Below, in pieces: positions 13,277 through 59,403 of a stretch of 64,000 nucleotides of DNA; positions within the stretch are counted from its first letter, which is position 1, and every line of letters begins with the position of its first letter. Under the pieces are notes generated by a model that worked only from the letters and a program-made list of their open reading frames with translations, had not been told where the DNA came from and searched no databases. The position numbers and the translations under genes were made by a program. This DNA comes from a bacterium (GTDB lineage: Bacteria; Verrucomicrobiota; Kiritimatiellia; SPBP01). The DNA is taken from the NCBI GenBank assembly GCA_037135275.1, contig JBAXKQ010000001.1:1172-65171 (forward strand), read 5' to 3'.

Positions 13277-13507
13277 GGCTGGACACTTCGGAAAGGAAAT
13301 CACATATACCACTGACTGACGCGGAAATGCTGCAACTCAAGCGCTGGAACACGCCCACGATCTACAATGGCTGGGAGCAGATCACCTCCGGAACACCGCG
13401 CAACCGGGTCGATGGCGGCGCAAGCGCAGGCAATTGTGCGGCGGGAAGACCTCTGTCGGCATAGACGTGGAGCGAACCCTTCGCGGTGTCACAAACTGGA
13501 GCATCGA

Positions 13508-15001: not shown

Positions 15002-15426
15002 AGCAGATGGCAGGCCGCTGGCTGGCGGCTGCCGTGCTGGGGCGGCTCGATGCAGTTGACGGTGAAGTTGACGCTGAGGCCAGGAGCGATTGAGTTCGCG
15101 AGGCAGTTGGCGATGGATGCGTAGCCACTGGAAGGTCACGTGCACAGCCAAGGATCCGCAGGAGCCTGGCTGTCCTCATCCCGGCCACCCAGCCCACTCC
15201 GTCCACCCAGTCCACTTCCACACCATCCACCGCTTCGCCCGCCCCACATGCTGCGACAGGTCAGATTGTTGCAGAAATGCTGGCCGATAGGAGGTATGTC
15301 CCCGCGGGGGGGCAGTGCGGCGGGCGGGGCGCCTCCGGGGCACAACAAGGGAATTGCCACGGCCACCCGTCCGTGTTATCGGTGAGACCCATGGCACGTA
15401 TACCGTGCCGCGGCCTGGGACATCGC

Positions 15427-16764
15427 ATGACCAAGATGAAGATCCTATCGATACCGTTGGTGGCGCTGATGATGCTCTCTGGCGCGCTTTTCATTCCTGC
15501 GCGCGCCTGGTGCGCCGCCCCGGGCCGTGGTCCGATCACCGCCAACGACGACATGGGTGCTGCTATCCCTGCGCTTGATCCGGTTGTGATCGCCTATTTC
15601 TACCAGCCTGGGTGCAGGGAATGCCTGATCGTGTCAAATGAGGTCCTGCCGGAACTCGAGGCGCGATGCGAGGGCTTCTATCAGCTCAGGTACTTCGACA
15701 CCGGCGTCAAGTCGAACTACCTTCTCCTGGCGGCATACCAGGTCCAGCTCGACGTGAAGGGGGATGAAGCCGTCTGTATGATCGTCAATGGACGGATCGC
15801 ACTGAATGGCTTGAAGGCCATCAAAACCCGGCTGATCACCACGATCGAGGAATGCGTCCAGCAACAACTCGCCGGCCCGCCGGTACACAAGTTGCCGATT
15901 GTCACCCCGCCGGCAGGAGCAGGAAGCCCGGCGCTTCTGGCGGATCGAATGAGGACATTCACCCTTCCGGCCGTACTGGGCAGCGGCTTGATCGATGGCC
16001 TGAATCCATGCGCCATTTCGACCCTGGTGTTCTTTATGAGCCTGCTGGCGGTAGCTAGGGTCCGGGCACGTGGGCTGCTCATAATGGGGTTGGCTTTCGG
16101 CACCGGGACATTCCTCACCTACACAGCACTCGGGTTCGGTCTCCTGCGGACGCTGCGCTTTCTCACCGGCTTCGAGTGGCTGCGCCTCGCCGTGGAAGCG
16201 GGCATGGTGTCGGCGCTCGTGATACTGGCATGCCTGTCGTTCAGGGACGCGTACCGCTTCAAGAGGAGCGGCAATCCGTCCGATGTACTCCTCCGAATTC
16301 CGGACGGCATGAGGACCAGCATGCACCGGGTAATGCGCCTCGGGCTGGCTGGCCCGGGGCTGGCGATTGGCGGATTCCTGGCTGGCTCGGCCGTGACTGC
16401 CCTGGAGAGCGTATGCACCGGTCAGCTCTATATCCCGACGCTGACTCTCATCATTGAGGACAGCGGCACCAGCCCGGAGCTCACTGCCAGGGCGTGGGTG
16501 TACCTGCTGCTCTACAACATCATGTTCATCGTGCCGCTCGCGGCCGTCTTCGTGGCAACGTACCTCGGCCTTGGCACCGGTTCGCTACTGCGGTGGAGTA
16601 AGCGCAATGTGGTTACGGCCAAGATCATGCTCGGGATGCTATTTGTGGTGCTCGCCATTCTGCTGACCCTGCTGTATGCAGGCGGCAGGACAGTTGTGCG
16701 GGACGCCCGGCCGAAGGCCGATGCGAACGACTCATCAGTGCCGGGGGTACGTCACCTGCCATAG
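15427..16764 (+). CDS. thiol:disulfide interchange protein, DsbD/CcdA family, with N-terminal periplasmic thioredoxin-like domain
   Basis: It has a signal peptide, a thioredoxin-like CxxC (YQPGCRECL), and a membrane core with GLNPCAISTLVFFMSL plus a second Cys at ESVCTGQLYIP (CcdA/DsbD β-domain motifs). Confidence 0.7.
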   Translation: MTKMKILSIPLVALMMLSGALFIPARAWCAAPGRGPITANDDMGAAIPALDPVVIAYFYQPGCRECLIVSNEVLPELEARCEGFYQLRYFDTGVKSNYLLLAAYQVQLDVKGDEAVCMIVNGRIALNGLKAIKTRLITTIEECVQQQLAGPPVHKLPIVTPPAGAGSPALLADRMRTFTLPAVLGSGLIDGLNPCAISTLVFFMSLLAVARVRARGLLIMGLAFGTGTFLTYTALGFGLLRTLRFLTGFEWLRLAVEAGMVSALVILACLSFRDAYRFKRSGNPSDVLLRIPDGMRTSMHRVMRLGLAGPGLAIGGFLAGSAVTALESVCTGQLYIPTLTLIIEDSGTSPELTARAWVYLLLYNIMFIVPLAAVFVATYLGLGTGSLLRWSKRNVVTAKIMLGMLFVVLAILLTLLYAGGRTVVRDARPKADANDSSVPGVRHLP

Positions 16765-17484
16765 GAAGAGCCCCTGTGGCGGTGCGGTAGGAACCCTGGC
16801 AGTCCGTTCCCGGGAGTGCAGAATGACTCTTGCGCCTTCAGGCGGAACAGCGCCCTCGCCTACCCGGATCAGGAAGCCCGCGAGACTCCTCACCATCTTG
16901 TACAGAAAGCCGTCGGCTGTCGCCGAAATGACAATCTCCGAACCCCGCCGCGTGACCGAAAGCCGGCTCAGGTGACGCACCGTGGTTTCGACAAAGCGAT
17001 TGGGATTGGCCGTGAACGCGGCGAAGTCGTGCTTACCCTCGAGGAGCCTCGCGGCCCTGGCCATGGCCGCAACGTCGAGAGGATCCCTGATCTGTGTCCT
17101 GTAGAGCCGCAGGAACGGGGGCACCACCGGCCCGTTCCAGATGAAGTAGCGGTATTCCTTCCTGATCGCACTGCGCCTGGCGTCGAAATCGCTCCTCACG
17201 CGCCTGACCTGATCAACCCTGATATCGGGCGGCAACACCGCATTGAGCCCCTTGCGGAGGGCGGTCACAACGTCGCCGTCCCTTTCAAGGTCCACGTGCA
17301 CGACCTGCCTGCGGGCGTGTACGCCCTGGTCGGTACGGCCGCTGCCGTGGGCTATGACCTTCTCGGTGGTAACTCGGAAGATGGCATCCTGAAGCGTTGC
17401 CTGCACAGTGGAATGGCCCGGCTGAATCTGCCAGCCGGCGTACGCCGAACCGTCGTATCCCAGAACTATCTTGTATCGGGTCAC
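16735..17484 (-). CDS. truA: tRNA pseudouridine(38–40) synthase
   Basis: YDGSAYAGWQIQP and GRTDQGVHARRQV catalytic-Asp motifs. Confidence 0.9.
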   Translation of the reverse strand: MTRYKIVLGYDGSAYAGWQIQPGHSTVQATLQDAIFRVTTEKVIAHGSGRTDQGVHARRQVVHVDLERDGDVVTALRKGLNAVLPPDIRVDQVRRVRSDFDARRSAIRKEYRYFIWNGPVVPPFLRLYRTQIRDPLDVAAMARAARLLEGKHDFAAFTANPNRFVETTVRHLSRLSVTRRGSEIVISATADGFLYKMVRSLAGFLIRVGEGAVPPEGARVILHSRERTARVPTAPPQGLFLWQVTYPRH

Positions 17485-22644: not shown

Positions 22645-23031
22645 GGCCCGCCGATTATCATTTATCGGGAGCGACCTCGTCAATGCCCATTTGCACGAGT
22701 GGACGGCCGCCGGAGGCCGTCGCCGACACGACTCCGGGGCGGCCCGCCCCGGCATCGCGGAGCCCGGCGGAGGCCAGCACTTCCACCGCCGCCATGAGGG
22801 CCAGCAAGGTCGTGCGCCTATGCCCGGCGCCGGCCGGAACGGAAGCGAGACCGCACAAGTCACGGTCCGACAGCTTGATTTCACAGCAGGAGATGGAATC
22901 GCGATGCGCCGTTTCGAGGACTTCAAGCCTGCCGTAGCCGCATCTTCGCTCAAGGAGGGCCGCGTAGTTCTCCGGACTGTTTCTACCGATGGCGGTAATT
23001 ATACCCTAACCGGTTATGAAAACACGCCGCC

Positions 23032-23298
23032 TCATTTTGTCCGGTTGGCGTAGACGTACTGGGCAATGGTGCGGACATTGACGAGTATCTTCCGGGCCAC
23101 CTTCGAGTCCTCTATCCTCGCGCCGTAATGTTTCTCGAGCATTACGATCAGTTCCAGCGCATCCACCGAGTCAAGGCCGACACCTTCGCCGAAAAGCGGT
23201 ATGTCAGCGTCGAGTTTCTCCGGCGTCATGCCTACCATGTTCAGGCGGGCAATGATTTGCGTCTTGAGTTGAGGAATAAGCTCTTCAATTGTCTGCAT
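23032..23298 (-). CDS. acyl carrier protein
   Basis: GLDSVDALELIVMLE phosphopantetheine-attachment Ser motif, ~88 aa. Confidence 0.8.
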   Translation of the reverse strand: MQTIEELIPQLKTQIIARLNMVGMTPEKLDADIPLFGEGVGLDSVDALELIVMLEKHYGARIEDSKVARKILVNVRTIAQYVYANRTK

Positions 23299-23312
23299 TA
23301 TCGGCACCCCGG

Positions 23313-24602
23313 CTAAGAAACGGTCCTCGCTTTGTGGATCAGGATGCTACCTGCAATGGCCGCACCCGAGAAGCACACAAGTTTGCAAATATCAGGCAGT
23401 ACATCCACCGTGGAGGCGTTACGCAGGAACAGGTCGTTGAAGGCGGTCAACCCCCAGTTCAGCGGCGAGTACGGACTGATGCTCTGCATGATCTGGGGCA
23501 TTGCAAACACCGGCACCCATACACCGCCGACGGCAGCCAGAATCACCACTGATATCGACCCGAATGACAGCGCCTGCTGTGGGGTCCTGAAATAGACGGC
23601 GATGAGCAGGCCGTACCCTGTGGCGGCCATCGCCACCGCCAGACCTGTGAGAATCACTCCCGCCCAGTTCGTGCCAATCACCAGCCTGCTCAACCCCACG
23701 AGCGGCATCAGGTATATGCCGCTGGCGATCAACAGAGAAAGCTGCAGGAGACAGACCGCCGCATAGAACAGGAACTTGCCGACAACGACGGGGAGTTGCG
23801 AGCCGGCGATCAGCCGCAGCCGCAACATGCTCCCGTCCTCCCGCTCCTTGATGAAGTTGCCTGCCAGTGGAAACAGGATGAAGAACATGGCGAACATGGA
23901 CCAGGCCGGGACATTATGCTGGACTGCATTGAGGGCCATGCCCTCGCGCTCCTTGCCGGATGCATCGGACTGGGCCACCTCGATCATGCGCGAGAGGTCA
24001 ATACCCGGCGGCGGCTCCCCGCCGCCGTCGGCAAGTTGTTCCTGTATGGCGGCCGTGAGCCATTCCGCCTGCTGGCCGATAATCATCCTCTCAACTGCCG
24101 CCGAAAGGGTTTGCCTGTAGTTGGCCTTGATCGCCGGATCAAAAAGGATCTCCACCCGCACGGCGGCATCGCCGGCACGGGGCGTCTCCACCGCATCCCG
24201 GCCGCCACGCGCGAGCAGTCCCCTCACGACGCCGTCCATCCTCCCCATCAGGGTGGCGGTCGCGCCCACGGGAATAATCACCGCCGCCTGGTAGTCCCCG
24301 CTCTGCACCAGCTTCCTCGCGGCGTCCCTGGTCAGGGCTTTTCCGCCCTTCTTCTCACGCGTGGTGATGCGTATCCCACCCGACTCCTGGAATGAGGCCT
24401 CAATGCCCGCGCCAAGATCATCCTGGTCCTCATCGACAAGAAGAACGTCAATCCTTGTCTCCTGGAACTGGCGGAAGGTGTTGTCCTGGATGACGGCCAT
24501 CACGACAACAAGGGCCAGCGGCATGATGAACACCAGCGCCATGCCGCCCGGGTCGCGGACGAGAAGCAGGAGCTCTTTCTTGATGGTCGCCAGAATCTTC
24601 AA
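23313..24602 (-). CDS. ABC-2 family transporter permease with large extracytoplasmic loop
   Basis: It has an N-terminal TM, a ~200-aa loop, then 5 TM segments (YadH/NatB-like topology). There is a 4-nt overlap with the ATPase gene. Confidence 0.7.
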   Translation of the reverse strand: MKILATIKKELLLLVRDPGGMALVFIMPLALVVVMAVIQDNTFRQFQETRIDVLLVDEDQDDLGAGIEASFQESGGIRITTREKKGGKALTRDAARKLVQSGDYQAAVIIPVGATATLMGRMDGVVRGLLARGGRDAVETPRAGDAAVRVEILFDPAIKANYRQTLSAAVERMIIGQQAEWLTAAIQEQLADGGGEPPPGIDLSRMIEVAQSDASGKEREGMALNAVQHNVPAWSMFAMFFILFPLAGNFIKEREDGSMLRLRLIAGSQLPVVVGKFLFYAAVCLLQLSLLIASGIYLMPLVGLSRLVIGTNWAGVILTGLAVAMAATGYGLLIAVYFRTPQQALSFGSISVVILAAVGGVWVPVFAMPQIMQSISPYSPLNWGLTAFNDLFLRNASTVDVLPDICKLVCFSGAAIAGSILIHKARTVS

Positions 24603-25348
24603 TCGCGTATCCCCCTGCCAGTGAGGTGCAGGAACAAGTCTTCGAGGTTGTTTCTGCCCGAGGCCGCCAGCATATCGGCCAGCGCCCCCTTCGCGATCAT
24701 GCGGCCTTCGTCGATAATGGCGAACCTGGTGCAGATCCTCTCCGCCTCCTCCAGGAGATGGGAGGAATACAGAATGGTCACGCCGTCTGATCGAAGTTTG
24801 GTCATGTAGTCCACGATCATGTTCCGCGACTGCACGTCCACGCCAGAGGTTGGTTCATCGAGAATGACCATGCGCGGATGGTGCAACAGGGCGGCGATCA
24901 GGTTGAGTCGCCGCTTCATGCCGCCGGAAAAGTGCTGAACACGCATGTTTGCCTTGTCCAGGAGCCCGAACTCTTCCAGGAAATGATTCACGTTCGAATG
25001 GATCGAGCTGCGGCGAAGGCCGTACATGCGGCAGAAGTAGACGAGGTTCTCGGCGGCCGTCAACGCCGGGAACAGGGCGATATCCTGGGGCGCAACCCCG
25101 ATCTGGCTCCGGATCTCGTCGCCATGCCTGGCCGCATCCAGGCCAAAGACGCGTACGCTTCCCGCATCGCACCTCAACAGGCCGCAGAGCGCCATCAGTG
25201 TTGTCGATTTCCCGGCGCCGTTGGGCCCGAGAAGCCCGAAAATCTCCCGTTCGTGCACCTCAAAGCTGAGCTGATCGACAGCCGGCTTTCCGGAGCCCCT
25301 GTAGACTTTGGTAAGTCCTGAGACCTCTATGACTGCGGGCGTCGTCAC
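24599..25348 (-). CDS. ABC transporter ATP-binding protein
   Basis: Walker A GPNGAGKSTT, signature FSGGMKRRLN, Walker B VILDEPTSGVD. Confidence 0.85.
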   Translation of the reverse strand: MTTPAVIEVSGLTKVYRGSGKPAVDQLSFEVHEREIFGLLGPNGAGKSTTLMALCGLLRCDAGSVRVFGLDAARHGDEIRSQIGVAPQDIALFPALTAAENLVYFCRMYGLRRSSIHSNVNHFLEEFGLLDKANMRVQHFSGGMKRRLNLIAALLHHPRMVILDEPTSGVDVQSRNMIVDYMTKLRSDGVTILYSSHLLEEAERICTRFAIIDEGRMIAKGALADMLAASGRNNLEDLFLHLTGRGIRD

Positions 25349-26346
25349 TTTATTGCTTCTCTCAAGCCGGTGAAAATGCCGTGCTCCCTGTCCGCTATCT
25401 CCAGCAGAATAGTGGACATCGCCGCGTAGGATTCATGCTCGCTGTTGCGATCCTTGATGATCCTGCCGGCAATCGCGGCGAAATCCCGCCAGCGATCGCC
25501 GTTTTCCGTCATTGCACGCGAAAGCGCCATGAGACGCGAATTATCCAGCACGGCGGAGGCCTCCTGGAGAAAGGATGCGTATATGAAGCGGAATCCGCCC
25601 CCGCCGGTCCCGATCTCCTCCTGCATCCTTATGAAGTGGCCAAGGTAGAGCGACGCTTTCTTCTCGCCAAGCTTCTCCGGCCATTTCTTCATCACTCTGG
25701 CGACATGACGGATTCCCCTTACTCCCAGGAACGGGAACGGAATTCCCAGCATGTCGAAGCAGTTCTTGCGGATACCCCTGACGATCGCGCCTGGCAGGTC
25801 AATCTTTGCCGGGACCTTCACCGGGTAATACATCCGCCCCTTCGGCTCAAACATGCCTTTCGCCCAGCGGACGCGCATCAAGTCCGCGCGGCTCAGGGAC
25901 TCGACGTTTTCCATGACGGGGTCGCTTATGAGATACCGCCCATCCTGCCTGCCGAAGACAATGATGTTGTGGGCATTGAAATGAAAACGGTACGGCGCCG
26001 GAAAATATGTCAGGTGAAACACCCCAACCTGCAACCCGACAGGAATGCCCATGGCAAGCGCCCGGTCAAGAGCTTCCATGGATGCTTCCTTGTCCCTGAA
26101 TTTCTGCCTGCAGATCTCGATTCCGAGCGCGGTGGCCGCGCGCTTGAATATCGTGCCGGGGAGGGGCCGGAATGTTGTGGTCGGCATGCCGTTGTGCCTG
26201 AGGATAGGCATGTAGGCAAAGAACAGCCCGGCGCCGATGCCGAATACCATGGACTCGCTGATGTCCACGCCGTGGTATCTCAACAGGTTCGCTGTGGCGC
26301 CATTCTCGCAATGCGCAGACTGGCCGTGTTTGAAATCAATGGTCAT
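25345..26346 (-). CDS. BtrH N-terminal domain / DUF4872-type papain-like protein (predicted ACP-dependent acyl/aminoacyl transferase)
   Basis: HGQSAHCENGATANLLRYHG matches the BtrH_N catalytic-Cys region. The 333 aa length fits the two-domain BtrH_N+DUF4872 architecture. Confidence 0.55.
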   Translation of the reverse strand: MTIDFKHGQSAHCENGATANLLRYHGVDISESMVFGIGAGLFFAYMPILRHNGMPTTTFRPLPGTIFKRAATALGIEICRQKFRDKEASMEALDRALAMGIPVGLQVGVFHLTYFPAPYRFHFNAHNIIVFGRQDGRYLISDPVMENVESLSRADLMRVRWAKGMFEPKGRMYYPVKVPAKIDLPGAIVRGIRKNCFDMLGIPFPFLGVRGIRHVARVMKKWPEKLGEKKASLYLGHFIRMQEEIGTGGGGFRFIYASFLQEASAVLDNSRLMALSRAMTENGDRWRDFAAIAGRIIKDRNSEHESYAAMSTILLEIADREHGIFTGLREAIK

Positions 26347-26816
26347 TCATCTCCGTCGCGTCGCGGATCTTCGCGTGTGGGCACGGCTGCCTGTTTCCAC
26401 GGAACGGCAAGCACCGCCTCGGTCAGCGTCACCAGTTCACCCACGGGAACGTCGAACACCTCTGCATACTTCCCAAGCGTGACGCTGTCCAGATTGCGGA
26501 AAGCCTCCGGATCAAGGTGCACCCTGATCTTCCGCTTCGGAATGCCGGTATATGCGGAGAGAAGCGCCACGTCGAACATGCTCCGGGCCATGTAGAAGGC
26601 CAGTGGACTGGCTTTGCCCTCCTTTACCGACAGATAGGCCGCCTTCACATCTTCGTTGATCTGCTCCCATGCCTGCAGCAATGCGGCATTCTTGGGCCCC
26701 CAGCCGCAACTGAGAACCTTGACATAGTTGCCCTTTTCGTCGACGGCATAGCAGAGTTCGCGTGTCCGCCCTTCCATCAGATTGTCGTCGTCCTGGGGAA
26801 CTTGTTCTTGCTTCAT
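26343..26816 (-). CDS. hypothetical protein (157 aa) embedded in the ACP/KAS-III cluster
   Basis: It is tightly coupled (4-nt overlaps) to both neighbours. I recognise no motif. Confidence 0.45.
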   Translation of the reverse strand: MKQEQVPQDDDNLMEGRTRELCYAVDEKGNYVKVLSCGWGPKNAALLQAWEQINEDVKAAYLSVKEGKASPLAFYMARSMFDVALLSAYTGIPKRKIRVHLDPEAFRNLDSVTLGKYAEVFDVPVGELVTLTEAVLAVPWKQAAVPTREDPRRDGDE

Positions 26817-26817
26817 G

Positions 26818-27966
26818 TCAACACACCGTCAAAAGCATAAAGGCATAGGAAAAACGGGCACTTTCCGGAACCATTCCAAGCAGTTTCATCCCCTTGTCGA
26901 GCCTTCCCGAGTGGAATAACTCCTCGAGGATGAGATAGATCGACGCACTCCCGACATTTCCCACCTGCGAAAGGTTCGTGAACCATTTCTCCTGTGGAAT
27001 GCCGATTCCATGCCTGGTCATGGCCTCGTCCAGCGGTTCCCGGAAGAATTCCGACGATATGTGGGGCAGGTAATAGTCGACACTCCCCGCCTTCAGGCCG
27101 TGTTTGAGCATCGACTTCGCGAGACTCTCCGCCGCGAGCTTGACGACGTGCCGGTTCAGCAGACCGACATCCTGCTTGATCGCGAACACGGACCGCGACA
27201 ACCACTCCTCCGGCGTGAGCACTTTCCAGCTCGTCATCTTCCCGTCGTCCGCCTTGTCGAGACCCGCGTACATGCAGGTGTCGATCTGGCCTGCAAAGGA
27301 GTACGTATCGATCCAGTCGAGCCGGAGGGAGAGGCTGCCCTTGTTGTCCGGCCGGGATTGAAGCAGCGCCGCGCCAGCCCCGTCAGAAAGCATCCATCTC
27401 AGGAAATCCTTTTCAAACGCCAGTATCGGATTCCGCTCCAACCTGGCCAGGTTCGCAACTTCACTCTCGTAGTTGCGCGCAAGGAGGAGCGGGGAGACAA
27501 ACTCCGATCCCGTACACACCGCGTTCGAACTGTTCCCGGCCACTATCGACATCATGCCGTATTTCAGGGCTTGCATCCCCGAGCAACAAACTCCGGAAGG
27601 CGACACGATCTCGATCGCCGGACACCCCAGGCAGCCGTGGACCATGGCCGCGTGGGAGGGAAGTATCTGATCCGGAATGGACGTACCACAGCACAAAAGT
27701 TCTATGTCACCGGCACGGAAGGAGGGGTCCAGCAGGCCCTCCACCGCCATGGCCGTCATTTCCGAGTTGGTGTGCGTGAACCGTCCGCCGCTGTCGATGG
27801 CGTAGTGCCGTCGCTTGATGCCGTTCCGCCTGGAGACGATCCGCCAGCTTCTCGAAGCCTTGCCGTTGATCCTGCCGAGAAGCTTCTCCATGCCGTCATT
27901 CGTGACGGGGTCGTTCGGCAGGAACTTACCGAGCCTGGTTATGTATGCTTTGTTTGCCATCCGCAA
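26818..27966 (-). CDS. 3-oxoacyl-ACP synthase III family condensing enzyme (DarB-like)
   Basis: Thiolase-fold KAS III pattern with active-site Cys context GVCCSGMQAL and C-terminal HxxxN region (NLSQVGNVGSASIYL). 382 aa. Confidence 0.75.
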   Translation of the reverse strand: MRMANKAYITRLGKFLPNDPVTNDGMEKLLGRINGKASRSWRIVSRRNGIKRRHYAIDSGGRFTHTNSEMTAMAVEGLLDPSFRAGDIELLCCGTSIPDQILPSHAAMVHGCLGCPAIEIVSPSGVCCSGMQALKYGMMSIVAGNSSNAVCTGSEFVSPLLLARNYESEVANLARLERNPILAFEKDFLRWMLSDGAGAALLQSRPDNKGSLSLRLDWIDTYSFAGQIDTCMYAGLDKADDGKMTSWKVLTPEEWLSRSVFAIKQDVGLLNRHVVKLAAESLAKSMLKHGLKAGSVDYYLPHISSEFFREPLDEAMTRHGIGIPQEKWFTNLSQVGNVGSASIYLILEELFHSGRLDKGMKLLGMVPESARFSYAFMLLTVC

Positions 27967-28897
27967 CAGTCCGGCGACCCTTGAACTTGTTCAGTACAAG
28001 CCCCAATAGCGAGTTAAGCGGGGAGACGATAACAAACGCCAGAACAAGTTCCAGAAAAAATGCGCCCAGCAGGACTTTCCTGAGCCTCGGACGCTTCCTG
28101 ATCTGTCCAGCCCACAGGAGAAACACCCTCTTAGCACGATTCTCCAGCCGTGCCAACGAAAGATTCCTTCCGGCCCCGCCGCACTGCTGAAGAATGTCGT
28201 CGAGCTGAAGAATCCTGCCGTCCAGGAGGGCTTGTCGAATGATCCCCCCGCATGAGGAGGCGGCCTCGATATCGGCCCCGGAAACCCCGGGCGCAGGAAA
28301 GACACCCAGAAACCGGGCCTTTCTGCCGCCAAACATCCAATAGCAGATGGTGACGAGACTCACCAGATTCGGGGCCTTGTCCACCAGGACAATATTGCCC
28401 CTTATGGTCCCGCCGAGAGTCTCAACTTGTGCTTTTACCCTCTCGAAGGACTTCACCCACATGTTTCGCGCACCTATCACGGTGAGGAGGTTGGCGCCTT
28501 TGAGCAGTCGTGCCGCTGCCGGACTCTTGAGAAACGCTGTGACGGGAAGGGAAGGCGACAGGTACCAGGGTTGGAAGGCGAGTATGATCAGGTCATGCTC
28601 GCCGGGATTCACGGCGGGACCCGGCTTCAAGTCCACCGGTTCCTCCAGCACGGATTCGGGAAAGACATCAAGGAATCCGCGCAGACTCCATGGAAAGGGA
28701 TAAGCATTGACCGGCTGGATTTCGAGGTAGTCTATTGAGAATTCCTGCGTCGAAAGGGGCCGCAGCATGGAATCAAGGATCTGCTTCAGTTGCCCCGTCT
28801 GCGTGTAGTATATTACCAGTATTTTCTTCACAGCAACCAGAACCTGTGGCTTCCACAACCGCCGGATCGCCGGGACGCCCTTGCTTCGATTCTGCAT
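27926..28897 (-). CDS. flavodoxin-like fold protein, DarA-like (dialkylresorcinol-type cyclisation/aromatisation partner)
   Basis: ILVIYYTQTGQL flavodoxin-like start, 323 aa. It sits immediately upstream of the KAS III gene and overlaps it by ~40 nt. The DarA assignment is by context and my recall of the family, not by a measured alignment. Confidence 0.4.
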   Translation of the reverse strand: MQNRSKGVPAIRRLWKPQVLVAVKKILVIYYTQTGQLKQILDSMLRPLSTQEFSIDYLEIQPVNAYPFPWSLRGFLDVFPESVLEEPVDLKPGPAVNPGEHDLIILAFQPWYLSPSLPVTAFLKSPAAARLLKGANLLTVIGARNMWVKSFERVKAQVETLGGTIRGNIVLVDKAPNLVSLVTICYWMFGGRKARFLGVFPAPGVSGADIEAASSCGGIIRQALLDGRILQLDDILQQCGGAGRNLSLARLENRAKRVFLLWAGQIRKRPRLRKVLLGAFFLELVLAFVIVSPLNSLLGLVLNKFKGRRTVADGKQSIHNQAR

Positions 28898-30349: not shown

Positions 30350-31162
30350 TCATGGACGTTTCAGGCCCATGACCCTGTGCTTGAGCACCGGAATCCGGCT
30401 GCGCGTTGCACCCAGCAGCCCTGGATCCAGCTCCGTCGTCAGGACGCTTTCGCTCCGCCGTGCCTCGCAAAGCACCTCGCCCCACGGCCCCACCACCATG
30501 CTGTGGCCGTAGCTGGACACCCCGCTGGCCTCGTTCCTGCCGCACTGGTTCGGCGCCACCACAAAACACTGATTCTCAATGGCGCGCGCCCTCACCAGGA
30601 CCTTCCAGTGATCCCGCCCGGTCCGTTGGGTGAAGTTCGACGGCACGAACATCAGCGCGGCGCCGCTCGCGGCGTAGCGCCTGAACAGCTCCGGAAAACG
30701 GAGGTCGTAGCAGATCGCGAGCCCGACCGGCCACCCCTCGATATCCGTCATCACCGGAGTCCGGCCCGCCGAGTACACATCGGTCTCCCTGACGTGCGTC
30801 CCGTCGTCGAGCCTCGCATCAAAGAGGTGCATCTTCCTGTACGTCGCCGCGATGCGCCCCCGCCGGTCGATCAACACGCACGTGTTGTACGTCCGGCCCC
30901 GCGCTCTTTCGATAATGCTGCCTGCCAGAATCCACGCCGCTTTCCGCCTCGCCAGGCCACACAACCCGCGGATGAGCGGACCATCCAGCGGCTCGGCGGC
31001 CGCCAGGTAGTCGACTGTCCCGCCCCTGACAGAAAACACTTCCGGCAGGGCAATGATGTCGGCGGACCTTACGCCGGATACCACCTTCTCAAGCCGCCGC
31101 ATATTCCGCACGCTGTCCAGGCCCGCGGCTACCTGTACGACTGCAACCCTGAGCTTCTTCAT
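30350..31162 (-). CDS. carbon-nitrogen hydrolase (nitrilase superfamily amidohydrolase)
   Basis: E-K-C triad context: IIALPEVF, RKMHLFD, LAICYDLRFPE. Confidence 0.85.
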   Translation of the reverse strand: MKKLRVAVVQVAAGLDSVRNMRRLEKVVSGVRSADIIALPEVFSVRGGTVDYLAAAEPLDGPLIRGLCGLARRKAAWILAGSIIERARGRTYNTCVLIDRRGRIAATYRKMHLFDARLDDGTHVRETDVYSAGRTPVMTDIEGWPVGLAICYDLRFPELFRRYAASGAALMFVPSNFTQRTGRDHWKVLVRARAIENQCFVVAPNQCGRNEASGVSSYGHSMVVGPWGEVLCEARRSESVLTTELDPGLLGATRSRIPVLKHRVMGLKRP

Positions 31163-31165
31163 GTG

Positions 31166-32341
31166 TCACTCCAATCTTCGCCTGAACCTGGTCACGGCAA
31201 GTGTGAGTATTACGGCACCTATCGCCAGCATGGCAAGCGCATCCGGCCACAACTCCGCCCAGCCGGCCCCTTTCAGGAAGATTCCGCGCACTATCGTGAG
31301 GTAGTATTTCAAGGGAAAGATGTAGGTTGCGCAGCGGATTGCGTACGGCATGTTCTCGACGGGAAAGATGAAGCCCGATAGCAGCACGAAGGGCATCATC
31401 ACGAAGAAAGCCGCAATCAGCATGGCCTGCTGCTGCGTCCTGGCAATGGTGGAAACCAGCAATCCCAGCCCCGTCGTTGTGAGAAGAAATATCCCCGAGA
31501 GCGCGTAGATCAGCGCAACACTGCCCATGAGCGGCACATTGAAGACGTACAGCATTACCGGCAGGGCGAGCGAGATCTCCACAAACCCGATGGCAACGAA
31601 CGGCAGAAGCTTGCCGGCTATCAGCTCGCCCTCACGCAGCGGGGTAACGATGATCTGCTCCATCGTGCCATCCTCCCGCTCCTTCACAAGCGCCATCGCG
31701 CTGACGATCATCGTCGTAACAAGCAGCAGCACACCCATCACCCCCGGCACCATGTAGTACTTGGATGTGAGGCCGGGATTGTACCACACGCGCGTGGCCG
31801 CGGCCACAGCCGGCAGCTGGAGGCCGGCCATGGCGGGCGCCTGCACCTGCGCCTTTTCAATGCTCACAAGCGCGTCGAGCTGCCCTCGCGCCGCGGCGGA
31901 TGAGTACTGTCGGACCGCCTTGCCGATGTAGTTCAAACCGTGCACGGCGAAATTGCTGTCAGCGCCGTCCACCAGCACCTGAATCGGCGCCTGCTCGCCG
32001 CGGGAAACATGTGCGCCGAACCCGGGCGGAATCGACAACACCAGCCCGGCCCTTCCCGAAACGAGGGCGTCGTCGTCCTGTGCCGCGCATCCATCGAGCG
32101 ACGAGGTCTGGAAGTATCCCGAGGCGCCCAGCGCCCGCACCAGCTCACGGCTGTAGAATGAGCGGTCGCCATCCCGTATCGCCAGGGATATGTTGTTCAC
32201 CTCCGTTGTGGCCGCATAGCCGAGCACGATGAGCTGGATGAACGGCGCCACGACAAGGATGCCGAACAACCGCTTGTCCCTCAGCGTCTGGGTCATCTCC
32301 TTCCGGAGCAGGCAGCCTATCCTGTGAAGTGACGCTCTCAA
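31166..32341 (-). CDS. ABC-2 transporter permease (YbhR/YbhS-like)
   Basis: N-terminal TM, a large periplasmic domain, and a C-terminal 5-TM ABC-2 core. Confidence 0.8.
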   Translation of the reverse strand: MRASLHRIGCLLRKEMTQTLRDKRLFGILVVAPFIQLIVLGYAATTEVNNISLAIRDGDRSFYSRELVRALGASGYFQTSSLDGCAAQDDDALVSGRAGLVLSIPPGFGAHVSRGEQAPIQVLVDGADSNFAVHGLNYIGKAVRQYSSAAARGQLDALVSIEKAQVQAPAMAGLQLPAVAAATRVWYNPGLTSKYYMVPGVMGVLLLVTTMIVSAMALVKEREDGTMEQIIVTPLREGELIAGKLLPFVAIGFVEISLALPVMLYVFNVPLMGSVALIYALSGIFLLTTTGLGLLVSTIARTQQQAMLIAAFFVMMPFVLLSGFIFPVENMPYAIRCATYIFPLKYYLTIVRGIFLKGAGWAELWPDALAMLAIGAVILTLAVTRFRRRLE

Positions 32342-32345
32342 CCGG

Positions 32346-33470
32346 TTACACCGCCTTTCGCGTGGTTCTCACGGCAAGCAAAGTGAAGATCATGCCAAGC
32401 AGCAGCATGCACGCAAAGTCGCGCCACACAACCGCAAACGAAGCGCCCTTGAGGATAATCTCCCTCAGCGCCGACACGAAATACCGCGGCACAACAATGT
32501 ACGTTACCACCTGGATCGGGGCCGGCATGTTGTGTATCGGGAAAATCAGGCCCGACAGGATGATCGAGGGGAGCAGCGACGTGATCACGGCCACCGTGAA
32601 CGCCGTCTGCTGCGACCGCGTGATCGACGAGATCAGTATCCCCCAGCTCAGGGCGGCAAAAAGGAATACCAGCGTCGTGAATGCCAGCAGCAGGTACGAT
32701 CCCTGTACGCGGATGTCGAACAGGATCCGGCCTACCACGAGAATGAGAATCATGGTGAGGAATCCGATCACCACGTAGGGCAACGTCTTTCCAAGGACCA
32801 GCTCAGCCGGCCGCACGGGCGAGACCATCATCTGTTCAATGGTCTCCTGCTCCTTCTCCCGTACAATAGAAAGGCAGGTTGTGATGGCGGCCGACAGCAT
32901 CAGCAGCATGGCAATCAGCCCCGGCACCAGAAACTTGGCGCTGTTGAGTTCCGGGTTGAACCAGATCCGCGGTTCCGTCACGACAACAGGCAGCGACAAC
33001 GAAGCGCCCGCCCGCCGGAGAGCCTCCACCCGGACCCTGCGCGTGGTGCGGTCAACCAGCGCCTCAAGGTACCCGGCTGCGGCCGATGCCGCGTTCGCCT
33101 CGGCGCCGTCCACCAGGAACTGCACCTCAGCCGTCTCGCCGCGGGCCAGCTTCGCCGCGTACCCGGCCGGCACCACGAGAACTGCGCGCGCCTCGCCGCG
33201 GCAGAGAATGTCGTCAGCTTCGGACGGACGCGAGAGCTCATGCACCCGGTCGAAATACGGGTTCTGGAACAGGCCGTCGAGAAGGACCCGGCTCTCCTGC
33301 GTGCGGTCCCCGTCCAGTACCGCAACCGGAATGTGTTTTACGTCGAAGGACAGGGCATACCCGTAGAGCACAAGCAGCAGCGCCGGGACAACGACCAGCA
33401 GGCCAAGCGACAACGGATCTCGCCCGATCTGCCGGAACTCCTTCTTCAGTATCGCGAGAAACCTTTTCAT
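32346..33470 (-). CDS. ABC-2 transporter permease (YbhS/YbhR-like), paralogue of the previous gene
   Basis: Same architecture. The two paralogues start MKRFLAILKKEFRQIGRDP and MRASLHRIGCLLRKEMTQTLRDK. Confidence 0.8.
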   Translation of the reverse strand: MKRFLAILKKEFRQIGRDPLSLGLLVVVPALLLVLYGYALSFDVKHIPVAVLDGDRTQESRVLLDGLFQNPYFDRVHELSRPSEADDILCRGEARAVLVVPAGYAAKLARGETAEVQFLVDGAEANAASAAAGYLEALVDRTTRRVRVEALRRAGASLSLPVVVTEPRIWFNPELNSAKFLVPGLIAMLLMLSAAITTCLSIVREKEQETIEQMMVSPVRPAELVLGKTLPYVVIGFLTMILILVVGRILFDIRVQGSYLLLAFTTLVFLFAALSWGILISSITRSQQTAFTVAVITSLLPSIILSGLIFPIHNMPAPIQVVTYIVVPRYFVSALREIILKGASFAVVWRDFACMLLLGMIFTLLAVRTTRKAV

Positions 33471-34453
33471 GTCATTGCCCGCCCTGCCACGTCAGGGCCC
33501 GCGGCCGGTTGCTGAACCATTCGAACAAAGGCGTCTTCAAGGCTCACCTCAACGCGGTTGATCGATTCGACCTCAATCCCGCGGGCGGCAGCAGCCAGGC
33601 CGAGGCTCGCCTCGTCGTACGCGCCACGGCGGCAGAAGACATGCAGGCGATGCCCGAAATACGATGTCGCCATAACCCCCTCCAGCCGGTCTGTCTCCTG
33701 CTTCGCCCTGCGCAGGGACGGGCTGGCTAGTTCAAACAGGTCACCGTCAACCGCCTTGCTCCTGATGCCAGCGGGTGTGTCGAGGGCAACCATCCGGCCG
33801 GCGTTGATCAGGCCGATCCGGCTGCAGAACTCCGCCTCGTCCATGAAGTGAGTGGTGACGAGGGCCGTGACACCGCGCGACACCATGTTCTGGATCAGGT
33901 CCCAGAAGCGCCGCCTTGATATGGGGTCCACTCCGCTGGTTGGTTCGTCGAGGAAGAGTATCGACGGCTCGTGAAGGATCGCGCATCCCAGGGCGAGGCT
34001 CTGCTGGGTTGCGCCTGACAGGAGCCCTGTCAGCCGGTCCTCCATGCCGCCCAGGCCGGCCATGGCGATGACGGCCCCGGTCCTCTCACGCAGGCGCGCA
34101 CCCTCCAGGCCGTAAACGCCGCCGAAGAAGGCAATGTTCTCCCTGACCGTGAGGTCCCTGTAAAGACTGAATCGTTGCGACATGTAACCAAGGTTCTGCC
34201 GCACTTTCGCCGGCTCGCGGTTGATGTCGAAGCCTCCGACCGATGCAGTGCCGGAAGTGGATTCAAGCAGCCCGCACAGCATGCGGATGGCAGTGGATTT
34301 CCCGGCGCCATTCGGCCCGAGCAGCCCGAATATCTCGCCCTTCGCAACGCTGAAGGCCAGGCGATCCACGGCGGTGAAGCGGCCGAACCTCTTGGTCAGC
34401 ATGTCGGCGCATATGGCTGTGTTGTTGCCGTTGGACTGCACTGGTTCTTCCAT
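33467..34453 (-). CDS. ABC transporter ATP-binding protein (YbhF-like)
   Basis: GPNGAGKST, LSGATQQSLALGCA, LFLDEPTSGVD. Confidence 0.85.
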   Translation of the reverse strand: MEEPVQSNGNNTAICADMLTKRFGRFTAVDRLAFSVAKGEIFGLLGPNGAGKSTAIRMLCGLLESTSGTASVGGFDINREPAKVRQNLGYMSQRFSLYRDLTVRENIAFFGGVYGLEGARLRERTGAVIAMAGLGGMEDRLTGLLSGATQQSLALGCAILHEPSILFLDEPTSGVDPISRRRFWDLIQNMVSRGVTALVTTHFMDEAEFCSRIGLINAGRMVALDTPAGIRSKAVDGDLFELASPSLRRAKQETDRLEGVMATSYFGHRLHVFCRRGAYDEASLGLAAAARGIEVESINRVEVSLEDAFVRMVQQPAAGPDVAGRAMT

Positions 34454-34476
34454 TCCACACCTTTCCAGGGGCCCGG

Positions 34477-35802
34477 TCAGAGTTTGCTTCCAGGCACGAC
34501 GGTCTGTCCCGCCGCATGCGTCAGGGCCGCGCGAGCGAGCGCAAGGTCCGCTTGCGCAACCGCCGACTCGTTCTGCGCATCGGTCAACCGCGCGTGGGCG
34601 TCAAGCACATCAGAGTTCCGGACAATGCCGTTCTTCCAGAGCTCTGTGGCCGATTCCAGGTTGAGTTCTGCGCTCTTCCGCGCCCGGGCTGAAAGCTGGA
34701 CCCGCTCAAGCGCGTCCCTGAGCGCGATGAGCGACTCCTTGACATCGAGCGTCACCTGCTCCTCCTGCTGCCGGCGGCGCAACTCCGCCTGGGCGGCCCT
34801 GGCGTCGGCCTCCTCCGCCTTCGCCCGCGCGAGGCCCCAGTCGAGGAGATTCCAGGCGACCGTCACGCCGGCAAAAGCGTCGCCCTTCCATTCTTCGGCA
34901 GGCGGGATATAGAGCATGTTCGGGTTGGCATATTCGTAGCGCGCGGCGAGATATACCTGCGGCTGGAGCGCACCGCGCGCTGCCCGGGCTGTTTCCACGG
35001 CGGCGTCCAGCTCCCTGCCGCGTGCGGCGCATTCCGGCCGGTTCGTCAGCGCCGTGTCGCGCAGCAGTTTCTCGTCCGGCGCTTCACCTGCAACGTCCGC
35101 CGCAATGGGCTCCGGAACGGCGTTCGTGGCCAGCTCAATGCCGGTGAGACGCCATATCTGCGCCCGCGCGTACTCCGCCTGCCGCTGCACCTGCTCGAGC
35201 GCCAGGCGTGTCCGGTCGACCAGCACATCGGTCGCCAGCGCATCGTTGTCAGTCACCAGCCCGGCTTCCCGCATGTTGTGGATATCCGCGGCGTGGGCGG
35301 TCATGCGCCGGACCGCGGCTTCGAGCACATCGCGGGCGCGGTACGCCTTGGCCCAGTTCCAGTAGGCCGACAGCGCCTGCAGGACCACATCGGCGCGGAC
35401 ACCGTCGCGGGCCGCGACGACTGCCTGCTCCTGGAGGCCGGCGGACCGCCTCAGGCCGGCAAGGCGATTCCCGGTGTAGACCGGCTGCAGGAGCGACACC
35501 GCGGCGCCGTACCGCTGTTCGATCGCGGGGATCACAATCATGCCGAGCTGGACGTCCTCCAGGCCCTCGTAGCGCATGGCCCGAGCCTCCAGGTCCAGCG
35601 ATGGAAGGCCATACGCCGTCGCCTGCCTCCCCCTCGCCCTGGCGGCCCTGACTTCCTGGTCGGCTGTGCCGATGGCAAGGCTGTGGCCGACAGCGGCTTT
35701 CACGATCATATCGCTGCCCACAGCCGGAGGTTCATCGGCCGGAACGGCTGTGCCCGGCACAAAGTGGAGCAGGATAAGCGTCAGGACAAGGCGCAGTTTC
35801 AT
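34477..35802 (-). CDS. TolC-family outer-membrane efflux protein
   Basis: It has a signal peptide and two repeats of the coiled-coil/β-strand TolC pattern. It is Ala/Arg-rich with helical repeats. 441 aa. Confidence 0.75.
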   Translation of the reverse strand: MKLRLVLTLILLHFVPGTAVPADEPPAVGSDMIVKAAVGHSLAIGTADQEVRAARARGRQATAYGLPSLDLEARAMRYEGLEDVQLGMIVIPAIEQRYGAAVSLLQPVYTGNRLAGLRRSAGLQEQAVVAARDGVRADVVLQALSAYWNWAKAYRARDVLEAAVRRMTAHAADIHNMREAGLVTDNDALATDVLVDRTRLALEQVQRQAEYARAQIWRLTGIELATNAVPEPIAADVAGEAPDEKLLRDTALTNRPECAARGRELDAAVETARAARGALQPQVYLAARYEYANPNMLYIPPAEEWKGDAFAGVTVAWNLLDWGLARAKAEEADARAAQAELRRRQQEEQVTLDVKESLIALRDALERVQLSARARKSAELNLESATELWKNGIVRNSDVLDAHARLTDAQNESAVAQADLALARAALTHAAGQTVVPGSKL

Positions 35803-36749
35803 TTTCTATCTCCCGTTGGTTCCCTCGAACTCACAAGGCCGATCAGTGCGTCTTCCAGGGAGGGCTTCACCTCGAGCAGGGAGGCCGGCCCCATGCCGCG
35901 ACTCTCAAGCATGGCTACAGCCTCCATAGCCTCCGGCCGGCCGTTCTGGCTCCACATGTGGAGGCGACTGCCGTAGAGCACAAGGCGCTCCGGCGACCAT
36001 CTAGCGCGCAGGATGGAGTACGCCGCCGCCGGCGATGCGCACTGGATATTGTAGATGCAGCCGGGCAATGCCGCCTTCACCTCGGCTGGCGTACCGGACA
36101 TGAGCGTGTGCCCGCGATTGATGAGACTGATCCTGTGGCACCGCTCCACCTCGTCCAGGTAGGGCGACGTCATGAAGATCGTCACTCCCTGCTCAAGAAT
36201 ATCGCTCAGGATGTTCCAGAACTCACCCCTCGAAACGGGGTCGACACCGGTTGACGGCTCATCAAGGAAAACGAGATCCGGGGTGTGCACGAGAGTGCAG
36301 GCCAGCGCGAGTTTCTTCTTCATGCCACCAGACAATGCGCGGGCCAGGCGAGTCCTGAATGGGGTCAGCCTCGTGAAATCGAGCAATTCATTCCTCCGCG
36401 AGCGGAGATCGGCGACCCCGTGGATATCGGCAAAGAACTCGATATTCTCGTCGACAGTGAGGTCTCCGTAGAGCGTGAAGTTCTGGGAGAGGTAGCCGAT
36501 CCGGCCCTTGATCTTTTCAGGTTCGCGGGCAAGGTCGTGGCCAAGAACCATGCCCTCGCCGGACGTAGGTTTGAGAATGCCGCAGAGCAGGCGGATGGCT
36601 GTGCTCTTGCCCGCCCCGTCCGGACCGACAAGCCCGAACATCTCGCCCTTGCGCACATCAAGATCCAGCACAGACACCGCCGCCGTCTCGCCAAACAGCC
36701 GGGCAAGGCCCCTGGTGCGGACCACAAGTTTGTCAGGTTCCATTCTCAT
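35799..36749 (-). CDS. ABC transporter ATP-binding protein (YbhF-like)
   Basis: GPDGAGKST, LSGGMKKKLALACT, VFLDEPSTGVD. Confidence 0.85.
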   Translation of the reverse strand: MRMEPDKLVVRTRGLARLFGETAAVSVLDLDVRKGEMFGLVGPDGAGKSTAIRLLCGILKPTSGEGMVLGHDLAREPEKIKGRIGYLSQNFTLYGDLTVDENIEFFADIHGVADLRSRRNELLDFTRLTPFRTRLARALSGGMKKKLALACTLVHTPDLVFLDEPSTGVDPVSRGEFWNILSDILEQGVTIFMTSPYLDEVERCHRISLINRGHTLMSGTPAEVKAALPGCIYNIQCASPAAAYSILRARWSPERLVLYGSRLHMWSQNGRPEAMEAVAMLESRGMGPASLLEVKPSLEDALIGLVSSREPTGDRK

Positions 36750-36774
36750 CGGGTAGCAGCAGTGTTACAGGCAG

Positions 36775-57465: not shown

Positions 57466-57471
57466 GTAACC

Positions 57472-59196: not shown

Positions 59197-59403
59197 GCAG
59201 TCCTCCGATTCAGACAACAACCCCTCCTTTTTCATTATCAGTAAAACACACTTACAATGCCACAACAAAGTGCATGCGCCCTATTTGACTCTTGCAGCCG
59301 CGGATGGGGCCCAGTATATTCGGCGCCGGGTGGGGCATATCTTGTCTGCCGCTCCTCCTGCCTGAGCGTGTCGGGCAGCCCGATCCGAAACTGGAGGTGT
59401 GTG

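Follow-up and report, generated by a model that had tools for sequence, protein, structure and literature searches.

Dialkylresorcinol (DAR) lipids make up the lipid half of flexirubin-type pigments. In their synthesis, DarB joins a β-ketoacyl and an α,β-unsaturated acyl thioester through Michael addition and Claisen condensation, and the resulting carboxy-cyclohexanedione is aromatised with decarboxylation to a resorcinol by DarA (PMC3992019, PMC6836626). The darAB genes alone give DARs in E. coli (PMC3992019). This core chemistry of DarB/StlD, DarA and an ACP is shared by the locus described here, by darABC of Pseudomonas chlororaphis/aurantiaca (2-hexyl-5-propylresorcinol) and by StlC/StlD of Photorhabdus, although the latter two systems are without the DarG, DarH and ABC exporter genes found here. 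Pseudomonas darABC also resembles the present locus in having no dedicated ketosynthase (KS) and chain-length factor (CLF), its precursors being drawn from primary metabolism (PMC6836626).

A larger cluster, responsible for the DAR moiety of arcuflavin, is found in Azoarcus sp. BH72 (azo0293-azo0283; Schoner et al. 2014, PMC3949708), where the genes encode an aromatase, a ketosynthase, a conserved hypothetical protein, a BtrH-like protein, the ATPase and permease of an ABC transporter, and an ACP. Its order and content, darA-B-D-E-F-I-C, are the same as those found here, where the counterparts of Azoarcus darD/E/F/I are called darG/H/I/J (PMC3949708); the G/H/I/J lettering is Chitinophaga-style (PMC12968099) and is the one matched by the NCBIfam DarG and DarH models. 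The Azoarcus cluster differs in three respects: it continues with darJ (a KS) and darK, where only a KS stub is present here; a toxin-antitoxin pair separates its ABC genes; and an aryl-polyene (arc) cluster lies about 20 genes away (PMC3949708). No such cluster was found among the ORFs scanned in the 64 kb window, i.e., the whole stretch of DNA analysed.

Homologous flexirubin dar genes share this order across dozens of Bacteroidota loci (identity to the present proteins of 37-43% for DarA, 46-57% for DarB and 46-57% for DarH), examples of such dar regions being Flavobacterium johnsoniae darA/darB (darB is Fjoh_1102) and Chitinophaga pinensis Cpin_6850/6851. In many of these loci, darB and darG are set apart by an extra ~1 kb, and the permease and ACP genes by ~2 kb; they keep the KS/CLF genes after the ACP, which are lost here. 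Finally, among the closest relatives are two nine-gene stand-alone modules from uncultured organisms, L084 (Logan SRR22387863) and L082 (ENA ERZ21831265). The L084 proteins are each 61-75% identical to ours, with a G+C of 0.585-0.596 as compared to 0.587-0.608 here, and the module lies amid housekeeping genes with no polyene genes adjoining. In both modules the ACP is still followed by an intact KS (402-403 aa) and CLF (355-362 aa), again in contrast to the present locus.

The seven-gene operon and its products

An earlier note, made from the sequence alone, had described seven co-directional ORFs in this region, and an ORF check recovered all of them as closely packed genes on the minus strand at 23032-28897. 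Judging from gene content and order, these genes are probably a copy, truncated at its 3' end, of the extended dar operon already known for making and exporting DAR lipids. The kind of cluster is not new, its order having been published in 2014 for Azoarcus BH72; what is new is the missing KS/CLF pair. The features are as follows:

darA, 27926..28897, minus strand: putative DAR aromatase with an N-terminal flavodoxin-fold domain and a long C-terminal hydrophobic helix
darB, 26818..27966, minus strand: StlD/DarB-type ketosynthase, predicted to condense two fatty-acyl thioesters head to head to a carboxy-cyclohexanedione
darG (Azoarcus darD), 26343..26816, minus strand: small conserved 157-aa protein with an XRE-type helix-turn-helix fold
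darH (Azoarcus darE), 25345..26346, minus strand: predicted BtrH-related papain-fold acyltransferase
darI (Azoarcus darF), 24599..25348, minus strand: ABC exporter ATPase (Pfam ABC_tran, 1.6e-32)
darJ (Azoarcus darI), 23313..24602, minus strand: ABC-2 permease of the exporter (Pfam ABC2_membrane_3, 2.8e-30)
darC, 23032..23307, minus strand: dedicated acyl carrier protein (Pfam PP-binding, 2e-8)
KS pseudogene remnant, 22655..23035, minus strand: tblastn homology over 23035-22706, 110 codons

The order darA-darB-darG-darH-darI-darJ-darC recurs, with all seven genes colinear on the same strand, in 55 of 80 related loci, most of them from Bacteroidota along with several from Syntrophales, and the arrangement is therefore not a product of chance. 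Four of the six junctions are overlapping (35-41 nt for darA/darB; 4 nt each for darG/darH, darH/darI and darI/darJ), while spacers of 1 nt and 5 nt separate darB from darG and darJ from darC, respectively; the overlaps of at least 4 nt reported earlier for the whole island thus hold at four junctions but not at these two. Translational coupling via ATGA overlaps is kept in the operon. Promoter and terminator scans of 20.5-29.9 kb performed no better than on shuffled sequence.

Profile searches agreed with the domain identities first proposed for these proteins (ACP, ABC-2 permease, ATPase, BtrH_N/DUF4872, a 157-aa protein and a KAS-III-like enzyme), and curated NCBIfam cut-offs were passed by DarB, the DarG family and DarH. 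DarB, whose probable start is ATG 27960 (380 aa), scores 559.5 bits against NF053539 (resorcinol_DarB), a margin of just 9.5 bits over the cut-off of 550, and 551.7 against NF005293 (StlD/DarB; cut-off 450). Its alignment to StlD (PDB 5gk0, E 2.7e-118) spans the full length, and its C127, H302, N337 and E155, corresponding to the catalytic Cys-His-Asn triad and Glu base, fall in columns that are at least 95% conserved. DarA, by comparison with all relatives, possibly starts at GTG 28831 to give an MKKILV N-terminus. It found no match in Pfam or NCBIfam even at E 10, and the copies searched hold no curated DarA HMM, so its assignment rests on homologues, synteny, structure and the GenBank name. 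Specifically, in nearly all of the 80 loci the gene neighbouring the darB homologue encodes a homologue of this protein (E 1e-64 to 1e-123), the structure model of DarA adopts a flavodoxin fold, and GenBank already names the identical protein DarA. By these comparisons, made with genes that adjoin darB homologues, the protein described earlier as flavodoxin-like is homologous to DarA. Along with the NF053539 match, which makes DarB a DarB/StlD-type enzyme, this bears out the DarA/DarB/DarC dialkylresorcinol logic originally suggested for the island, and neither of the outcomes that the earlier note had named as refuting it was encountered.

The remaining products are equally typical of the family. 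DarG matches its family model, NF053536 (138.6, cut-off 70), but falls below the flexirubin-specific equivalog cut-off (NF053545; 145.7 bits vs 170), even though the NCBIfam DarB, DarG-family and DarH models all match. DarH scores 460.8 bits against NF053550 (DarH_acyl; cut-off 300), with Pfam matches to BtrH_N (1.6e-48) and DUF4872 (5.5e-57); it has no solved structure detectable by sequence, and among 69 homologues conservation reaches at least 95% at its H12-C13-E14-N15-G16, H122/H126-N127 and S141-D142-P143. DarI is DrrA-like (TIGR01188, 240 bits) and its position after darH is conserved among relatives, DarJ is colinear in relatives and departs from the consensus at 0 of 40 conserved columns, and DarC has a conserved D46-S47 phosphopantetheine attachment motif. 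The BtrH-like protein, the 157-aa protein and the exporter, once regarded as extras implying an unknown product, are instead standard, named members of extended dar clusters. A literature search found no experimental paper on the function of DarG or DarH, and to our knowledge the roles of DarG, DarH and DarI/DarJ have been experimentally addressed in no organism.

The truncated 3' end

In related loci the operon continues beyond the ACP. Among 17 with sufficient downstream sequence, the ACP is followed by a full-length KS in 16 and by both KS and CLF in 15; the pair is also present in L082, L084 and L085, the three closest relatives with gene calls read. Here, a KS stub, whose start overlaps the stop codon of the ACP gene in an ATGA, occupies most of the gap up to wzm (ATG at 22644), its homology ending ~60 bp short of that gene. 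By tblastn, the stub matches residues 1-110 of the full-length KS of L003 (53% identity, E 7e-29), L082 (54%, E 2e-40) and L084 (65%, E 1.5e-39). It contains an in-frame TAG at codon 10, a Tyr position in relatives, and is without the catalytic-Cys region (Cys163 in the L082 KS). No CLF homologue was found in the 64 kb window by tblastn with the relatives' genes. On this homology, the KS and chain-length-factor pair that normally ends the operon is deleted here, a 110-codon stub being left behind. The identical stub junction is present in a second deposited assembly, which was found through an exact-protein contig look-up with the 144-aa DarG call; look-ups with DarA and DarH gave no match. 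The incomplete 3' end had not been registered in the earlier note. The loss could mean that the operon is itself heading for loss.

Proposed pathway and alternative readings

The other seven genes contain no frameshifts or stops and have kept their catalytic residues. Of 319 columns conserved in the family, only 3 are changed in their proteins, and Syntrophales relatives are similar (0-3 departures per protein); conserved columns were counted instead of dN/dS, since at amino-acid identities of 60-77% the synonymous sites are saturated. Since the seven genes look intact, synthesis of a DAR-type lipid by the operon most likely continues. In the proposed pathway, DarC would carry an acyl substrate, and DarA, modelled as a membrane-anchored flavodoxin fold, may carry out a flavin-dependent dehydrogenation. 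DarH, by analogy with BtrH, would receive an acyl group from an ACP on its Cys13 and hand it to an acceptor, presumably the resorcinol hydroxyl in pigment producers. The ABC-2 exporter DarI/DarJ would then take the lipid out of the inner membrane, with DarG as a conserved HTH-fold accessory protein. The KS/CLF pair probably makes a dedicated β-ketoacyl-ACP in relatives; with the pair deleted, any DAR made here must therefore use precursors from housekeeping fatty acid synthesis (FAS), like darAB in E. coli.

It is possible, although we do not favour it, that the operon supplies the DAR portion of a flexirubin- or arcuflavin-type pigment, for which an aryl-polyene module elsewhere in the genome makes the acid that DarH esterifies to the resorcinol. 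The gene set is the same as in flexirubin producers, and the dar and polyene clusters of Chitinophaga pinensis and Azoarcus BH72 are separate loci (PMC3992019, PMC3949708), so the absence of polyene genes from the window is not decisive. Nonetheless, a scan of ~45 larger ORFs spread over the 64 kb turned up none of the components of such a module (type II KS/CLF, KR, dehydratase (DH), ammonia-lyase or XanB2, CoA ligase, LolA-like protein, acyltransferase). In tblastn searches, for which the queries were KS, CLF, acyltransferase, radical-SAM and dehydratase/PPTase genes of the relatives, the KS stub was the only match. The shortfall of DarG against the flexirubin-specific model and the occurrence of the L084 module on its own amid housekeeping genes likewise argue against a pigment.

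Another reading, which we consider unlikely, takes the seven genes as a non-functional relic in which the KS/CLF deletion killed the pathway and the remainder has yet to decay. The truncated, stop-containing KS and missing CLF would fit such a relic, as would the almost universal retention of the pair elsewhere; moreover, L085 has darG-H-I-J-C-KS-CLF without darAB, suggesting that KS/CLF are an integral part of how DarH, the exporter and the ACP operate. The intact reading frames and near-consensus sequences of the seven genes speak against it, as do the sufficiency of darAB for DAR formation in E. coli (PMC3992019) and the existence of Pseudomonas darABC and brt clusters without a dedicated KS/CLF (PMC6836626).

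Very improbable is the reading, following the surface glycolipid or pigment anchor suggested in the earlier note, in which the DAR lipid anchors a surface glycolipid or polysaccharide exported by the adjacent Wzm/Wzt, resembling the glycosylated bartolosides. The wzm/wzt genes do lie immediately downstream on the same strand, and the cyanobacterial brt cluster, which makes bartolosides, combines glycosylated DARs with a glycolipid exporter (PMC6836626). However, the island is not directly upstream of wzm as had been stated: the truncated KS pseudogene lies between darC and wzm, and the adjacency is therefore a scar of deletion or rearrangement. A wzm homologue is found beside dar in none of the 80 related loci and is uncalled in L082, L084 and L085, no glycosyltransferase domain was found among the genes scanned ~10 kb to each side, and the dar operon already has its own exporter. 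On the arrangement of these genes, wzm/wzt are neighbours unrelated to the dar operon, and the surface-glycolipid idea is unsupported.

Finally, there is next to no chance that the genes serve housekeeping fatty-acid-synthesis initiation (FabH plus ACP), a role that the earlier note had also rejected: the KAS-III fold and weak FabH matches (72.9 for TIGR00747, cut-off 292.1; 88.7 for NF006829, cut-off 249) are set against DarB and StlD scores above 550 and a best PDB match to StlD some 100 orders of magnitude ahead of any FabH, and a FabH identity is thereby refuted.

Significance of the truncated module

The discovery value of the locus is small, in that the cluster type was described in 2014, three of the proteins have curated NCBI models and DarA is already named in GenBank. 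Its analysis does correct a tempting but wrong link between a DAR lipid and an O-antigen-type exporter. It also provides a natural experiment, namely an extended dar module minus KS/CLF with the other seven genes intact. Taken together with L085, where darG to CLF occur without darAB, the loss suggests that extended dar clusters may be built of two separable sub-modules. In addition, the flavodoxin-fold model of DarA fits a flavin-dependent aromatisation, which is of interest as the relatives appear to be anaerobes.

As to origin, a single marker, TruA, has its nearest named relatives in Kiritimatiellia, Lentisphaerae and Verrucomicrobiota. Tested for signs of recent horizontal transfer, the dar genes were not anomalous in composition (GC3 0.73 for dar vs 0.76 +/- 0.04 for 27 other genes); at 0.587, the G+C of the module is intermediate between 0.608 for the window and 0.53-0.56 for the Syntrophales copies, which is suggestive only. 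Tentatively, a PVC-group host (an assignment based on TruA) may have taken the module from a Syntrophales-like donor. After the loss of KS/CLF, the seven genes might still make and export a DAR-type lipid anoxically from FAS precursors, with DarA as a membrane-bound, oxygen-independent flavin dehydrogenase and DarH acylating the resorcinol with a group other than an aryl polyene. If this is true, the locus would represent a naturally minimised extended dar pathway, and would help to distinguish what KS/CLF do from what DarG, DarH and DarI/DarJ do.

A dialkylresorcinol cluster of a described type

The seven genes at 23032-28897 of the window are a new copy of a known, already annotated type of 2,5-dialkylresorcinol (DAR) cluster, and the 3' truncation is their only unusual feature. 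All seven minus-strand ORFs claimed in the earlier note were found, with the domain content it had described (Pfam, NCBIfam). Its claim of overlapping genes stands for four of the six junctions, namely darA/darB (35-41 nt) and the next three overlapping pairs (4 nt each), while at the other two the genes stand 1 and 5 nt apart; the layout thus resembles an operon, with not every junction overlapping.

Features of the dar island and its 3' end (window coordinates)
22655-23035, minus strand: truncated beta-ketoacyl synthase pseudogene, between the ACP gene and wzm
23032-23307, minus strand: ACP, darC (domain content)
23313-24602, minus strand: ABC-2 permease, darJ (domain content)
24599-25348, minus strand: ABC ATPase, darI (domain content)
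25345-26346, minus strand: BtrH_N and DUF4872 protein, darH (Pfam/NCBIfam)
26343-26816, minus strand: 157-aa protein, darG (DarG-family model)
26818-27966, minus strand: KAS-III-like protein, darB (NCBIfam DarB/StlD models)
27926-28897, minus strand: 323-aa protein, darA (no Pfam/NCBIfam match)

Curated NCBIfam models for the dar system (DarB, DarG family and DarH) were applied with their own cut-offs. DarB scored 559.5 bits against resorcinol_DarB (cut-off 550) and 551.7 against the StlD/DarB family (cut-off 450), but only 73-89 bits against FabH models with cut-offs of 249-292, in keeping with the earlier view that the condensing enzyme is not a housekeeping FabH. It also aligns end to end with crystallised Photorhabdus StlD (5gk0; E 2.7e-118), and retains C127, H302, N337 and E155, each in a column whose conservation across 75 homologues is 95% or higher. 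The 157-aa protein exceeds the DarG-family cut-off (138.6 vs 70) and the BtrH-like protein that of the DarH acyltransferase (460.8 vs 300), the latter with a candidate papain-type triad of C13 (within an HCENG motif), H126 and D142. No model in the Pfam or NCBIfam libraries matched DarA; the identical GenBank entry MEI6969904.1 is named dialkylresorcinol condensing enzyme DarA, and in nearly all of 80 related loci, including those of many Flavobacterium species, Capnocytophaga, Parapedobacter and Syntrophales, a DarA homologue adjoins a darB homologue, lying directly upstream of it almost without exception. The proposed DarA/DarB/DarC logic was right. In that established chemistry, DarB joins two fatty-acyl thioesters, one beta-keto and the other alpha,beta-unsaturated, into a carboxy-cyclohexanedione, which DarA-type enzymes aromatise (PMC6836626).

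The BtrH-like enzyme, the small protein and the exporter had been taken as signs of an unknown pathway; they are instead standard parts of a described cluster, since the same gene set is known from Azoarcus BH72 and Chitinophaga, and 55 of the 80 loci carry all seven genes colinearly on a single strand (tblastn survey). The Azoarcus cluster, published in 2014, runs darA (aromatase), darB (cyclase), darD (hypothetical), darE (BtrH-like), darF (ABC ATPase), darI (permease) and darC (ACP), followed by darJ (ketosynthase) and darK (PMC3949708). In a comparative table of 2026, the Chitinophaga counterparts bear the letters A, B, G, H, I, J, C and D (PMC12968099), with which the NCBIfam names DarG and DarH agree.

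The truncated 3' end and the wzm junction

Where Azoarcus BH72 has a ketosynthase and darK after darC, the window has only a ketosynthase stub. Downstream of the ACP gene, a Syntrophaceae relative (L003) has genes for a 403-aa beta-ketoacyl synthase (KS) and a 365-aa chain-length-factor-like protein (CLF). A search of the window with both gave a single match, in which KS residues 1-110 align with minus-strand positions 23035-22706 at 53% identity (E 7e-29). The stub's ATG overlaps the ACP stop codon (ATGA), and its codon 10 is an in-frame TAG (23008-23006) where relatives have Tyr. Homology stops near codon 110-125, with stop codons at 22662-22655 and the wzm ATG at 22644; the catalytic-cysteine region (Cys163 in the KS of L082, an uncultured relative from ENA ERZ21831265) and the entire CLF gene are absent from the window. 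In the 17 related loci whose sequence extends 2.6 kb or more beyond the ACP gene, a full-length KS follows in 16 and KS plus CLF in 15. Gene calls in three of the closest relatives, L082, L084 (Logan SRR22387863) and L085, include both, and the L084 KS is the best match of the stub (65% identity).

It is unlikely that the junction is a peculiarity of a single assembly, because contig SESE01000056.1 (47,416 bp) of GCA_005795745.1 shows 100% identity with the window across the 20,435 bp compared, junction included; its annotation calls part of the stub (22658-22858) as a 66-aa hypothetical protein.

The earlier note had read the adjacent Wzm/Wzt exporter as pointing to a surface glycolipid. A wzm homologue was found in none of the 80 related loci, the gene calls of L082, L084 and L085 have none beside dar, and it is the truncated pseudogene that lies at the join with dar. 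The adjacency is best taken for a scar left by a deletion, which leaves the glycolipid interpretation unsupported. Downstream of wzt come nadC, coaX, mannose-1-phosphate guanylyltransferase, ruvX and truA, and a scan of genes up to about 10 kb from the island found no glycosyltransferase domain. There are glycosylated DARs whose clusters include a glycolipid exporter, as in the bartolosides (PMC6836626); that analogy was weighed and dropped, its defining features being absent at this locus.

Host, pigment and surrounding genes

Among named organisms, the dar proteins have their closest relatives in Syntrophales, and TruA (16735-17484) has its own in Kiritimatiellia, Lentisphaerae and Verrucomicrobiota (62-66% identity). 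This difference, seen with TruA as single marker, hints at horizontal acquisition of the module by a PVC-group bacterium; codon composition of the dar genes is without anomaly. A scan of some 45 larger ORFs across the 64 kb showed no aryl-polyene genes. A pigment role is possible, since the polyene cluster of known producers can sit elsewhere than dar (PMC3949708, PMC3992019).

Just upstream of the island, a large minus-strand efflux operon (30350-37734) encodes an HlyD-type adaptor, two ABC ATPases, a TolC-like outer-membrane protein, two ABC-2 permeases and a carbon-nitrogen hydrolase, in a YbhGFSR-like layout unrelated to dar. Two adjacent plus-strand ORFs of about 530 aa without Pfam match (11678-13276 and 13367-14944) are paralogues (28% identity over 453 residues, E 3e-21), and 15277-16764 is a third ORF without a match. 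At 55738-59268 (minus strand) and 50784-51965 lie two tandem PilB/GspE-type secretion ATPases with MshEN domains, a GspF-type platform protein and a sigma-54 response regulator, a set that suggests a locus for a type IV pilus or type II secretion.

In Syntrophales-type relatives, a conserved block precedes the dar module (L003 1154-6216, L002 1-3627, L082 157-4318). It comprises a KS, a lysophospholipid-type acyltransferase, a B12-binding radical-SAM enzyme and a dehydratase/PPTase fusion in L003, is without the KS in the L002 DNA examined, has PlsY in addition in L082, and may be a separate lipid-modification pathway. The block is absent from the window, where tblastn with the relatives' flanking KS, CLF, acyltransferase, radical-SAM and dehydratase/PPTase proteins matched only the stub.

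Possible sub-modules and likely function of the truncated operon

The extended cluster seems to consist of two separable sub-modules, because L085 (GCA_043805145.1, JAZDIK010000081.1, 10001-16084) carries darG-H-I-J-C-KS-CLF, 69-77% identical to the window proteins, and has neither darA nor darB within 10 kb, and darAB stand alone in several Desulfobacterales loci (L004, L008, L010). The KS and CLF may be functionally grouped with the ACP, DarH and the exporter, and such a partnership keeps alive the reading that the seven genes are a recently inactivated relic. We consider a relic unlikely: just three of 319 family-conserved columns are off consensus in the seven proteins (V for I beside the ACP serine, S45 in DarB and S258 in DarH), with comparable departures in Syntrophales relatives, and the candidate DarH triad and translational coupling are kept. 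Moreover, darA and darB of C. pinensis alone yield DAR in E. coli (PMC3992019), and Pseudomonas and cyanobacterial clusters are without a dedicated KS/CLF (PMC6836626). On these grounds, it is most likely that the truncated operon continues to produce a lipid of the DAR type, drawing on housekeeping precursors.
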